64,000 nucleotides of DNA from an uncultured delta proteobacterium (lineage in GTDB: Bacteria; Desulfobacterota; Binatia; DP-6): the NCBI GenBank assembly GCA_963815115.1, contig CAWFFN010000009.1, forward strand, positions 1,408,001 to 1,472,000. Direction: 5' to 3'. Position numbers and translations under genes: made by a program. The notes under the pieces are model-generated. The model made no database searches and was not told the origin of the DNA. It saw only the letters and a list, made by a program, of their open reading frames with translations. Shown one piece after another: positions 1-3,262 of the stretch. Each line of letters opens with the position of its first letter. Within the stretch, counting starts at the first letter, position 1.

Positions 1-721
1 CGAGATGTTCAACGATCGCCTGTTCCGCTTCTGGAGCGACCTGGAGGAGGCCCTGCGCACCGGCAAGCCGCAGAACGAGGTCAAGCACGCCGGCGCCTCG
101 ATGTTCCAGGAGCTGTATAGCGAGCCGGCGCGCCTCGAGCAGTTCATGGCCGCGATGAGCGGCCTCTCGCGCCCCAACTTCGTGGCGCTCGCCGAGCGGT
201 TCGACTTCGGTCCCTACCGCACGCTGTGCGACGTGGGCGGCGCGTCCGCGGTGCTGTCGTGTGCGGTCGCCGCGCGCCATCCGCACCTGCGCTGCATCTC
301 GTTCGACCTGCCACAGGTGGAACCCATCGCGCGTGCCGCCATCGCGCGCCGCGGGCTCGCCGACCGCGTCACGACCCGGTCCGGCGACTTCTTCCGGGAT
401 CCGCTGCCGCGCGCCGACGTGATCACGATGGGCATGATCCTGCACGACTGGAACCTCGACAAGAAGAAGGGGCTGATCCGGGCCGCCTACGAGGCGCTCT
501 CCCCTGGCGGCGTCTTCATTGCGGTGGAGCACCTCATCGACGACCAGCGCCGGGAGAACGGGTTCGGCCTGCTGATGTCGCTCAACATGCTGATCGAGTT
601 CGGCGACGCCTTCGACTTCACGGGTGCGGATTTCCTCGCCTGGTGCTCCGAGGCCGGCTTCCGGCGCTGCACGATCCTGCCGCTCGGCGGTCCGGCGGCC
701 GCGGGCGTCGCGTACAAGTAG
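1..721 (+). CDS. SAM-dependent O-methyltransferase (Methyltransf_2 family), 5'-truncated by window edge
   Basis: DVGG motif I, GDFF, ILHDW and LxPGG motifs; frame is open to the window start. Confidence 0.85.
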   Translation, partial: EMFNDRLFRFWSDLEEALRTGKPQNEVKHAGASMFQELYSEPARLEQFMAAMSGLSRPNFVALAERFDFGPYRTLCDVGGASAVLSCAVAARHPHLRCISFDLPQVEPIARAAIARRGLADRVTTRSGDFFRDPLPRADVITMGMILHDWNLDKKKGLIRAAYEALSPGGVFIAVEHLIDDQRRENGFGLLMSLNMLIEFGDAFDFTGADFLAWCSEAGFRRCTILPLGGPAAAGVAYK

Positions 722-736
722 GTACCGGCAGCGAGG

Positions 737-863
737 CTAGGAGAGCGACCCGAGACGTCGTCTCGGGTCGAGACGGAGGGCGAGGATCAGACTCGATGAA
801 CCGTGCGTTCGTCGTGCCGCGAGCGGCGAAGCCGCCGCGGCAAACGTCTCGGGTCTCCCTCCT
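737..863. mobile_element. Putative MITE (121-bp body 741-861) with 18-bp terminal inverted repeats and CTAG target duplication
   Basis: 741-758 GAGAGCGACCCGAGACGT vs reverse complement of 844-861 GAGGGAGACCCGAGACGT (16/18). CTAG at 737-740; the second CTAG is rebuilt as CT(862-863)+AG(2401-2402) after removing the IS. Confidence 0.65.
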
Positions 864-884
864 GATATGGAACGACCCGTCAAG

Positions 885-1165
885 CGTACCAACGTCCTCA
901 TTGATTCTGCACGCGGTTGCGGCGACGGAGCAGAGCGAGCGACGGTCGAAGGGCAGCATCGACGGTTGATCACGCTGATATTCGCGGATCGGCCCCGAGG
1001 GCGCGCCAGCATAATCGTGATCCGTCGGGAGCTGCCTCGGACTAGTGTCGCGGGTCTGGCCAGGGGCCTGTCGCATAGGAGGCACGAGGATTCTCCTTCC
1101 CGTGAGCCCTCCGACCCCCGCTCGCTCTGCTCGTCCCCGCCGCCTCATGTGTCGTTCGTCCTCTC
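885..1165 (-). ncRNA. Putative bridge RNA/seekRNA in the IS 3' non-coding end (boundaries approximate)
   Basis: About 300-nt non-coding end downstream of tnp containing CCTCCTA (matches target), CTAG and ATATCAG (matches donor junction). Confidence 0.65.
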
Positions 1166-1172
1166 GCCCTGG

Positions 1173-2297
1173 TTACGCCGCGTGGGAAGCTTCGTCCTGC
1201 TCGACCTGGACCCCGATCGCCCACACGAAGCCCAACAGCTCGCGGCCGACGGCGGTGATGACCTTGGGGATCGGCTTCCCCTTCCCGCTGAGATGGCGGT
1301 AGCGCGCATGCAGCCGATGTTGTGCCGTCCAGGCGATCGCTTTGGTCTCCTCACTGAGCCCACGCTGGCGGACGCGCAGGGTGTGCCCGACCGCCGGGCG
1401 ATGCCGATAGGCATGGGCCGCCTCCATCAGGATGCGGCGCAGGTGGGCATTGCCCGTCTTGGTGATCGCCCCGCGCCGCGTCTTGGGCCCGCTCGAGCGC
1501 TCGCGCGGGACGGCCCCGCTGTAGCCCATGAGCGCGCCGGCGTGTGCGAAGCGGGAGAGCTGGCCGACCTCGGTCACGATCGTCACGGCGCCGAGCGCCG
1601 CGATGCCGCGCAGCGCTTGGAGGGCCGCAATCACGGCCCGCTGCGGCGCGGGGGCTGCCGCGACCACGGCGGCGAGCGCCCGTTCGAGGCGGGCGATCCG
1701 CTCGGTCGCATGGTCGACCTCGTGGCGGTAGTCCACGAGCGTCGCCTCCTGCGCGGGCGCCTCGAAGCGCACGGTGAGCAGCCACGCGCTGTGCTTCGCG
1801 CCCCACGCCTTGCGACCGGCGGGGGCCCGGCGCCCGTGGCGCAGCAAGAACTTGCTCAACCGATGCCGCGCGCGCAGCTGGTCCTGCTTCGCCGCTTCGC
1901 GGGCGCGCACCAGATCGCGCAGGGCCTCGTGGCCGGCGTCGGGCACCCACACCGCCGTCAAATCCCCGCTGCGGTAGCTCCGCGCCAGCTTCTCGGCATC
2001 ACGCCGATCGGTCTTCACCCGATCGCCGGCTTTCACCGGCACGAGCGTTGGCGCGATCACATCGCAGTGGACGTTGAGCGCGGTCAGCTGCCGGTGCACG
2101 ACGTAGCCGGTCGGGCCGGCCTCGTAGCACACGCGCAGCCGCTCCCGTGGCCCGAGCTTCGTGACCAAGCGACGCACGGCCTCCGGGGTGTTGGGGATCG
2201 TCCCCAGCGAGCGTACCGTCCCATCCGCCTCCGCGACCGCACCCGCGATCGTCTCGGCATGTACATCCAGGCCCACGAATCGGCTATCCTCCGTCAT
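1173..2297 (-). CDS. IS110 family transposase (DEDD RuvC-like + Tnp20 domain), 374 aa
   Basis: VGLDVH, CYEAGPTG, KTDRRDA, ERSSG and GxITKTGN motifs; AAAGGAG SD before the ATG at 2297. Confidence 0.95.
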   Translation of the reverse strand: MTEDSRFVGLDVHAETIAGAVAEADGTVRSLGTIPNTPEAVRRLVTKLGPRERLRVCYEAGPTGYVVHRQLTALNVHCDVIAPTLVPVKAGDRVKTDRRDAEKLARSYRSGDLTAVWVPDAGHEALRDLVRAREAAKQDQLRARHRLSKFLLRHGRRAPAGRKAWGAKHSAWLLTVRFEAPAQEATLVDYRHEVDHATERIARLERALAAVVAAAPAPQRAVIAALQALRGIAALGAVTIVTEVGQLSRFAHAGALMGYSGAVPRERSSGPKTRRGAITKTGNAHLRRILMEAAHAYRHRPAVGHTLRVRQRGLSEETKAIAWTAQHRLHARYRHLSGKGKPIPKVITAVGRELLGFVWAIGVQVEQDEASHAA

Positions 2298-2398
2298 CGA
2301 CCGGCTCCTTTCGCATGTAGCTCTGCGCTCCGGGTTGCTGATCCGATCCGCAGCGTAACCTACGACGCTGCGAATCGGAGCCGGTCGTTCCATTGTGA

Positions 2399-3262
2399 CT
2401 AGCCGAGGAAGTCCAGCGTCGCGCGCGCGACCTCCGCGGGCTTCTCCTCGTGCACCAGGAGGCGCCCGCCCGCAATCTCCACGAGGCGGGCGTCGGGGAG
2501 CTGGTGCACCATCCTGCGGGCGTACTCGACGGGGAAGGTGGGGTCGTCGGCGCCCCAGAGCAGCTCCACCGGCATCCCGATGCGCGCATGGTCCCGCTCG
2601 AGAGCGTCGACCGGCCCCCACGCGAGGCCGCGCAGGTAGCGCGCCATGCCTTCCATCCGTCGCCGGGAGTCGACCATGGGCTGGATCACGTGGTCGTGAA
2701 AATCGCCCTCCAGCAGGCGAAGGTCGGTGAAGCATCCGCCGAATCCCATGCCGGAGCGCACGAACGGCCCCGTCCGCAGCAGCATGCCGAAGAAGGCCAG
2801 CGATCCGGGCAGGGCGATCAGCTGCTGGTAGAGCGGAATCCACGGCGGGCGATGATGGGGAACCTCGGTGTTGATCAGGACCAGCTTCTCGACCCGCGCT
2901 CCGTCTGCCAGCGCAAGGTAGCGCGCGAAGGTGCCACCGGTGTCCTGCGCCAGGACGCTGTAGCGCTCCAGACCCAGACGGTCGGCCAACGCCTTCAGCG
3001 TCTGTCCCTGCCCCGGGAAGCTGAAGTCGGTGGCATCCGTCCATTCCGACTCGCCCATGCCGGGAAGGTCCGGCACCCAGCAGGTATGGTGCTGCGACAG
3101 CTCGGGTAGCACCTTGCGCCAGGTGAAGCCGGAGAGGGGGAAGCCGTGCACGAGGAGCAGCGGCGAGCCGCGACCGAACCGCCGGCAGGCGAGGCGCGCC
3201 GTGCCGGTGTCCACCCGCTCCACCGGCGCATCGAGGTAGAACCGCGCGATCGCCTCGGCCAT
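2399..3262 (-). CDS. Alpha/beta hydrolase (epoxide hydrolase/haloalkane dehalogenase-like)
   Basis: HGFP oxyanion motif, DLPGMGES, Asp nucleophile elbow AQDTGG. Confidence 0.85.
   Translation of the reverse strand: MAEAIARFYLDAPVERVDTGTARLACRRFGRGSPLLLVHGFPLSGFTWRKVLPELSQHHTCWVPDLPGMGESEWTDATDFSFPGQGQTLKALADRLGLERYSVLAQDTGGTFARYLALADGARVEKLVLINTEVPHHRPPWIPLYQQLIALPGSLAFFGMLLRTGPFVRSGMGFGGCFTDLRLLEGDFHDHVIQPMVDSRRRMEGMARYLRGLAWGPVDALERDHARIGMPVELLWGADDPTFPVEYARRMVHQLPDARLVEIAGGRLLVHEEKPAEVARATLDFLG

Follow-up and report, generated by a model that had tools for sequence, protein, structure and literature searches.

What moves the insertion sequence that lies near the start of a 64,000-nucleotide (nt) stretch of an uncultured delta proteobacterium, and does it carry, in its own non-coding end, an RNA that reads both its target and its donor ends? 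The stretch, here called the window, spans positions 1,408,001 to 1,472,000 of contig CAWFFN010000009.1 (assembly GCA_963815115.1), and the element, 1535 bp long, occupies window positions 864-2398 on the minus strand. An initial annotation had proposed an intact RNA-guided recombinase of the IS110/IS1111 group whose guides could be read from the letters alone. A comparison of its ends, protein, RNA and insertion sites with those of its relatives indicates that the element is very probably an IS110-family insertion sequence with an IS1111-type layout that moves by RNA-guided recombination, and it appears to be a new, ordinary and well-supported member of the kind described in 2024. Its protein-coding and terminal features are as follows.

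862-863, no strand: core dinucleotide CT (AG on the minus strand), the copy at the RNA-gene end, from reading the sequence
864-2398, minus strand: whole insertion sequence, delimited by the core duplication, the subterminal repeats and the same end geometry in relatives
867-877, minus strand: right subterminal inverted repeat, followed by a 3-nt extension ATC (866-864)
1176-2297, minus strand: transposase of 374 amino acids (aa), stop codon at 1173-1175, with D11, E59, D97, D100 and S269-G270, from Pfam, NCBIfam and alignment to the IS621 and ISCro4 chains
2383-2393, minus strand: left subterminal inverted repeat ATGGAACGACC, preceded by a 5-nt extension TCACA (2398-2394)
2399-2400, no strand: core dinucleotide CT, the copy at the transposase-start end, overlapping the stop codon (2401-2399, minus) of a hydrolase gene

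On the plus strand the junctions read tccctcCT at 856-863 followed by gatatgg from 864, and ttgtga at 2393-2398 followed by CT at 2399-2400 and agccga from 2401. Removing 864-2398 together with one CT rebuilds the 14-mer target that had been claimed, and abutting the two ends gives the claimed circle junction, both as read directly from the sequence. The ends are not arbitrary, because they are flanked on the inside by an 11-bp perfect subterminal inverted repeat (867-877 and 2383-2393), whose distance to the element's end is 3 nt on one side and 5 nt on the other. Read in transposase orientation, one end runs flank, AG, 5-nt extension, repeat, and the other runs repeat, 3-nt extension, AG, flank; this layout recurs in all relatives whose two ends could be paired, and the AG core is found at both junctions in nearly all of them. 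The element has the hallmarks of the IS110 family in lacking terminal inverted repeats and in carrying a short core once per junction with no target duplication, and those of the IS1111 group in its subterminal inverted repeats (7-17 bp in that group, 11 bp and perfect here) and in a longer non-coding region downstream of the gene, with 309 nt after the stop codon versus the 101-nt leader that, with an AAGGAG, precedes the transposase frame (2297-1176).

The transposase itself combines an N-terminal DEDD RuvC-like domain (PF01548, DEDD_Tnp_IS110, E 1.5e-14) with a C-terminal Transposase_20 domain (PF02371, E 5.1e-17), as is characteristic of the IS110 family, and it scores 234.1 bits against the NCBIfam model NF033542 'IS110 family RNA-guided transposase', for which the cut-off is 140. 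Among solved structures it matches the transposases of ISCro4 (E 1.1e-8) and IS621 (E 3.5e-7), and D11, E59, D97, D100 and the serine of S269-G270 (within a G--P----SG motif) fall at the catalytic positions of these two proteins, the N-terminal alignment being weak when taken alone. Relatives match over about 360-374 residues. We file the element as IS110 family with IS1111-type architecture, because its 374 aa lie outside the 330-350 aa of the IS1111 cluster.

Downstream of the gene, on the same strand, lies a predicted structured RNA with the following parts.

919-1144, minus strand: predicted bridge/seek RNA gene, 226 nt, consisting of a long basal stem (1143-1106 paired with 954-919) and of two arms, one binding the target and one the donor
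1076-1083, minus strand: long target guide GCCUCCUA, 5' side of the target loop, pairing with T, the AG core and GAGG of the target top strand (transposase orientation)
1042-1045, minus strand: short target guide CUAG, 3' side of the target loop, identical to the final 2 nt of the opposite flank followed by the core
1010-1019, minus strand: 5' side of the donor loop, CACGAUUAUG, in which AUUAUG (1015-1010) is unsupported and GAUU (1016-1013) is a candidate 4-nt guide
975-981, minus strand: donor guide AUAUCAG, 3' side of the donor loop, equal to the terminal 5 nt at the RNA-gene end of the element, followed by the core

A fold of 1144-919 as a single sequence gave z = -4.0, and the consensus fold of 20 relatives contains 33 pairs, 21 of which show compensatory changes on both sides. 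A derived structure of 49 pairs, tested on an alignment in which the basal stem was partly out of register, was paired at 73.7% over the alignment versus 66.5% in shuffled controls and had 26 pairs changed on both sides versus 17.8, with none of 500 shuffles as high in either measure. The target arm consists of GGAG/CUCC and CCUCG/CGAGG helices, an internal loop and a UGCG/CGCG helix; the donor arm consists of CGACGG/CCGUCG and AUCA/UGAU helices, an internal loop and a short apical stem. Each of the four candidate guides forms one side of a loop that is bounded by supported helices. A hidden Markov model of the RNA had a match after the gene at 75 of the 80 metagenome loci, and a single match in the element's own genome.

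Evidence that the two sides of the target loop act as guides comes from their changing with the insertion site. Relatives were collected from 71 reference-genome loci and 80 metagenome loci; 26 of the latter, with ends of the group-A type, entered the site and donor counts, and those of group B were not added. Two loci with broken genes (L072 and L075, the latter without 2 nt of its extension) and ten metagenome loci with spurious repeat pairing (L117, L118, L120, L121, L124, L130, L132, L142, L147 and L156) were dropped before counting, and L013, with 1 nt of left flank on its contig, stayed outside the site test. Over the resulting 54 distinct sites in 28 guide classes (an earlier, smaller permutation set held 34 sites), the long guide matched 4.02 of 6 flank bases versus 1.76 +/- 0.29 after shuffling and the short guide 1.87 of 2 versus 0.75 +/- 0.16, with no shuffle of 10000 as high in either case; the shuffles leave kinship among the elements in place, so that these counts are not probabilities. 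The columns of the long guide vary with the flank, as in GGCUCCUA with GAGCC, GACUCCUA with GAGTC, CCGCCCCU with GGGCGG, CACCACUA with TGGTG and GAAUGCUU with CATTC. CUAG, as a 4-nt palindrome, carries little weight alone, and the short guide owes its support to the way in which it changes with the flank in relatives (UUAG with TT, UAAG with TA, GCAG with GC).

A stronger argument than the shuffle counts is provided by single-base guide switches between close relatives. The guide of the window element and of its nearest relative, L092, begins GCC, that of L096 and L015 begins GGC and goes with GAGC flanks, and that of L095 begins GAC and goes with a GAGT flank; likewise CCGCCCC in L112 accompanies GGGCGG versus CCUCCCC with GGGAGG. 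One relative is present at 21 loci of a single Hoeflea metagenome-assembled genome and, with an identical RNA, at one locus of another genome (L074), and the target consensus of these loci is as its two guides predict. In the window element the two target guides jointly define a target of about 8 bp, CTAG followed by GAGG, into which the element inserts right behind CTAG; within the RNA, the guide that matches the top strand precedes, in 5'-to-3' order, the one that matches the bottom strand, as in the IS1111 group. Separately, a pair of loci (L097 and L098) shares the right flank aagctttacc next to different left flanks, with a guide that mismatches the first flank base, a pattern that may reflect insertion into a repeated sequence or rearrangement. 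L075, one of the broken loci set aside above, is a decayed relative with a disrupted frame, and its target and guides match those of L103-L108 once the 2 nt missing from its 5-nt extension are allowed for.

The junction at the RNA-gene end is AA instead of AG in three of the 54 sites (L011, L021 and L022), the other junction being AG, and in each of the three the long guide carries UU where it faces the core; eight further sites with a UU guide have AG, and none of the 43 sites with other guides has AA. This suggests that AA-core targets are used, each product keeping one partner's core base.

L092, on a metagenome contig, is 94.5% identical to the window element end to end and shares its ends and guide. 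Its flanks are ...CTCTCTAG and GAGGCCGAC..., a target CTAG|GAGGC that matches all 8 guide bases next to a different left flank. This second copy bears out the expectation that other copies would share ends and target; in the wider family the long-guide columns covary with the targets. The genes of the two copies differ at 64 of 1122 positions (39 synonymous and 19 non-synonymous codons) and the RNAs at one position in about 200 nt; judged from these differences, the gene and, more so, the RNA are under constraint. The frames of the closest relatives, L092-L096, are all open. The description of the element as intact thus fits what the sequence offers, namely an open frame, the retained D/E/D/D/S residues and an RNA more conserved than the gene.

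One side of the donor loop behaves in the same manner as the target guides. The donor guide matched 4.72 of 5 bases of the RNA-gene end versus 3.48 +/- 0.27 after shuffling (0 of 5000 as high) and was perfect in 56 of 60 loci; it follows atc, att, gag and cag ends, and a C-to-U change in the guide accompanies the change from atc to att ends. The three minus-strand segments named in the initial annotation (CCTCCTA at 1082-1076, CTAG at 1045-1042 and ATATCAG at 981-975) are exact, their roles as two target guides and one donor guide are confirmed by family covariation, and its assignment to the RNA-guided recombinases of the IS110/IS1111 group agrees with Pfam, NF033542 and the IS1111-type architecture. 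Of the four guides expected in an element-encoded RNA with target- and donor-complementary loops, three are thus supported by covariation.

The joined ends of an excised circle would in addition form a promoter.

878-883, minus strand: -35-like TTGACG just inside the right subterminal repeat, 17 nt from CACAAT (2397-2392) across the joined ends

This predicted junction promoter has 9 of 12 matches and a 17-nt spacer, and the -35 box next to the repeat is conserved in relatives. In group A the extension plus the AT of the repeat always reads CAnnAT (CACAAT, CATAAT, CAAGAT, CAGGAT, CAAAAT, CAGAAT or CACTAT), 17-18 nt from the conserved TTGACA-like box. Scans of the linear element returned no promoter site and no terminator site, nor was a T-run terminator found. 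A junction promoter of a similar kind is described for ISEc11 and ISEc21 (Siddiquee et al. 2024, PMC11187229). We picture a cycle in which the element would encode a DEDD/Ser recombinase followed by an RNA of about 226 nt, built of a long basal stem that carries two arms. In the target loop, GCCUCCUA on the 5' side would pair with one target strand across the AG core into the flank at the RNA-gene end, and CUAG on the 3' side would pair with the opposite strand over the core and 2 nt of the flank at the other end. In the donor loop, AUAUCAG on the 3' side would match the last 5 nt of the element and the core at the joined ends of the circle, and there the TTGACG, 17 nt from CACAAT, would allow transposase and RNA to be expressed from the circle only. 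That the RNA is made and bound by the protein, that it directs recombination, that circles form and that the promoter is used we infer by analogy with published work on IS621, ISEc11 and ISEc21.

Several observations weigh against this account. The element is present once in its own 6.9-Mb genome, although that genome offers 31 CTAGGAGG sites, of which several mark unoccupied ends of the repeat into which it has inserted, and recent activity in the present host is therefore not evident. The minimum-energy fold of the RNA pairs GCCUC of the long guide with GAGGC, and the family structure with four open loop sides costs 13 kcal/mol more (-112.0 versus -125.1), a cost to be expected of an RNA held by protein and no proof of one. 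The proposal that the guides lie outside paired stems accordingly holds for the family-conserved structure and fails for part of the long guide in the single-sequence fold. A search of 500-2800 against the covariance models of Rfam 15 with E up to 10 returned four weak matches far below gathering scores, none at or near any family threshold and none in 919-1144. Finally, no contiguous guide for the transposase-start end was found, the corresponding loop side tracking neither TCACA nor the other ends, and local alignment of that loop side with the end is weak (10.19 versus 9.18 +/- 0.47, with 141 of 5000 shuffles as high).

Could the guide matches be due to chance, or to ancestry shared between element and flank, with the protein alone reading the target and the 3' region serving as a stable hairpin that terminates or stabilises the mRNA? 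Each match is indeed short (4-8 nt), CTAG is palindromic and there are many registers to choose from, but the guide columns change with the flanks over 28 classes and by single bases between close relatives, the guides lie in loops between helices with compensatory changes, and no T-run terminator was found; we regard this explanation as highly improbable. It is a weightier suggestion, though still an unlikely one, that the element is a genuine IS110-family member that has lost its activity in this host, a domesticated or stranded copy in which RNA and gene survive only because it arrived recently. Such a copy would account for the lone insertion in a genome that offers free matching sites, including repeat ends with CTAGGAGG, for the lack of a clear match between the 5' side of the donor loop and the end, and for the lack of a promoter-like site in the linear form. 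Site-specific elements often occur in few copies, however, and a junction promoter would silence the integrated copy by design; moreover, the frame is open with all catalytic residues kept, the codon changes relative to L092 indicate purifying selection on the gene next to a nearly invariant RNA, and the frames of L092-L096 are all open. An element that would move by RNA-guided recombination remains our preferred reading.

Within that preferred reading, the transposase-start end deserves separate consideration. The caution with which a left-donor guide had been mentioned was justified, and its weak candidate, AUUAUG (1015-1010, 5 of 6 to the end), was rejected as its loop side does not track the element end: the same end TCACA goes with AUUAUG, ACCAUG, ACUAUG and AUUGUG, and ACCAUG goes with five ends. 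The perfect AUUGUG of L011 looks like chance, since L103, L105 and L110 carry AUUGUG with other ends. A column-by-position search for complementarity over 18 donor classes gave no covarying pair, a match to the subterminal repeat was found in group B only, and the ACGG of the multiloop is conserved and does not covary. GAUU at 1016-1013 could act as a 4-nt guide over two end bases and the core with one G-U pair; the end bases opposite it are invariant and hence uninformative for covariation. Probably, then, a very short guide recognises the transposase-start end, or the protein does so through the subterminal repeat, or both contribute.

One way to resolve this is an RNA with three guides, in which RNA reads only the target and the RNA-gene donor end, and recognition of the transposase-start end falls to the protein, acting through the subterminal repeat, with the 5-nt extension constrained as a -10 box and not as a guide target. 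This reading is less likely than not. It is favoured by the failure of the donor loop side to covary with the extension, by the fit of group-A extensions plus AT to CAnnAT at 17-18 nt from a TTGACA-like box, and by the statement of Durrant et al. (PMC11208160) that many IS1111 RNAs place their donor-binding bases unlike IS621. Four guides are nonetheless the arrangement in the published IS621 work, and a 4-nt guide including the core is possible at 1016-1013, where a near-invariant GA followed by YU or CC faces an extension whose first two bases are invariant (TC) in group A, and where GGUC in group B fits core G plus ACC. As a conjecture that could readily prove wrong, we extend the three-guide arrangement to the clade formed by the window element, ISSso6 and more than 100 relatives from soil and sediment metagenomes: the guide RNA would be asymmetric, reading one target flank and one donor end with long guides, both at the junction at the RNA-gene end, and the opposite target flank through 2 nt plus the core, and the transposase-start end, having no contiguous guide, would be recognised through the subterminal repeat, with its extension serving as a -10 box. 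If so, the AA-core junctions would show which partner's core base each product keeps. The clade, which is not known to have been dissected by experiment, supplies a natural data set of 28 guide classes, 54 insertion sites and single-base guide/target switches, and its short target specificity (about 8 bp), together with a donor end that is possibly not read by RNA, bears on reprogramming and on how much specificity such RNAs supply.

How the element relates to characterised systems can be judged from IS621 (Durrant et al. 2024, PMC11208160; structures 8wt6 and others) and from the IS1111 seekRNA elements ISEc11, ISPa11 and ISKpn4 (Siddiquee et al. 2024, PMC11187229). It resembles IS621 in its DEDD/Ser recombinase, in a CT core (here on the strand opposite the gene), in an RNA with two internal loops that read both strands of target and donor across the core and, when read with the CT core, in the combination of a long left-target guide with a 4-nt right-target guide, each including the core. 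It differs in that the IS621 RNA gene precedes the recombinase gene on the same strand as the CT core, whereas here, in the arrangement published for IS1111 elements, the RNA gene follows the gene and both are on the AG strand, and in that IS621 has subterminal repeats of 2-3 bp versus 11 bp here; protein similarity is low (E 3.5e-7, mainly in the C-terminal domain) and the fourth guide is not demonstrable here. With the seekRNA elements it shares the long non-coding region after the gene, the subterminal inverted repeats, the order of the two strand matches in the RNA (top strand 5' of bottom strand), a redirection of targets in nature through guides that differ between relatives, and a promoter at the circle junction (predicted here); its transposase, at 374 aa, is longer than the 330-350 aa of the tight IS1111 cluster. 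Named relatives are ISSso6 and ISEc45. ISSso6, annotated on the Shigella plasmid NZ_CP026829.1, has a protein 40.3% identical; an RNA of this family follows its gene (nhmmer E 5.7e-19) with AUAUCAG as donor guide, the matching end reads atc, and the ends share the 5-nt/3-nt/AG geometry. ISEc45 has a protein 45.2% identical and a weakly matching RNA region (E 3.3e-4). Both differ from the window element in host (enterobacterial plasmids), subterminal repeats and targets. What is new here, as read from the sequence, is a target at the tip of a dispersed repeat resembling a miniature inverted-repeat transposable element (MITE), joined ends that would form a promoter, and ISSso6 as a named relative with the same RNA.

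737-863, plus strand: MITE-like dispersed repeat, whose far terminus (CTAG then GAGG, minus) is the insertion site and whose last bases lie at 2401-2402

The 129-bp repeat unit that starts at 737 in the window is split by the element at its far end, right after CTAG. Ends of the pattern CTAGGAG plus 2-6 bases plus ACCCGAGAC occur 28 times in the genome (39 with a looser pattern), often as inverted pairs about 300 bp apart, as at positions 1161570 and 1161873 and positions 555209 and 555514 of contig C9 and positions 618802 and 619106 of contig C12. Units are about 130 and 300 bp long, with terminal inverted repeats starting CTAGGAG..GACCCGAGAC and a hairpin inside. Related genomes carry the repeat in abundance as well. 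Most of the ends show CTAGGAGA or CTAGGAGC, and several show CTAGGAGG and have no element inserted. The CTAG may be the target duplication of an IS5- or IS630-like parent. A G+C-rich hairpin within the window's unit, CCGCGAGCGGCGAAGCCGCCGCGG (817-841, within 814-879), gave weak, chance-level Rfam matches.

There is a known precedent for an IS1111-type element that inserts site-specifically at the end of another mobile element, and the present case, with a small MITE-like repeat as host element, adds a further example of an RNA-guided element homing to the tip of another mobile element. Alphaproteobacterial relatives (L017, L023, L055, L057, L018, L019 and many metagenome loci) sit in CTAG followed by TGGTnnnnnnCTnACnnTTGGTnCCC-like sequence, and sphingomonad relatives sit in front of GGGGCCTGAGGGCCGCCTTG. 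Flanks of the TGGTnnnnnnCTnACnnTTGGTnCCC and GGGGCCTGAGGGCCGCCTTG types look like termini of other mobile elements, and homing to such ends may be a habit of the clade.

The element lies between an O-methyltransferase gene (5-721, plus strand) and an alpha/beta hydrolase gene (3262-2399, minus strand), both recognised by Pfam. The hydrolase stop codon that overlaps the core copy at 2399-2400 stays intact, and the insertion, as one mobile element beside a hydrolase gene, is of little consequence for the biology of the host genome. A search with the left flank in 31 genomes, G000 among them, found the methyltransferase, and in none of the seven loci examined did the hydrolase adjoin it, so that an empty orthologous site was not obtained; paralogous repeat ends in the element's own genome were used in its place.

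No DNA copy of the element, near or distant, was found in plasmid records at more than 80% coverage. Contigs of four DNA sequencing runs compared with 600-2700 gave fragments only, and stretches that they leave uncovered carry no evidence; two contigs of run X4 follow the sequence as far as 2399 and 2401 before diverging, breakpoints that agree with the element end and contribute little. Apart from the element, its genome contains eight further matches to IS110-family transposase genes (C5:1374955-1380821, C5:75889-76281 and C9:342978-430006), at most 40% identical over parts of their length, among them four near-identical copies on C9.

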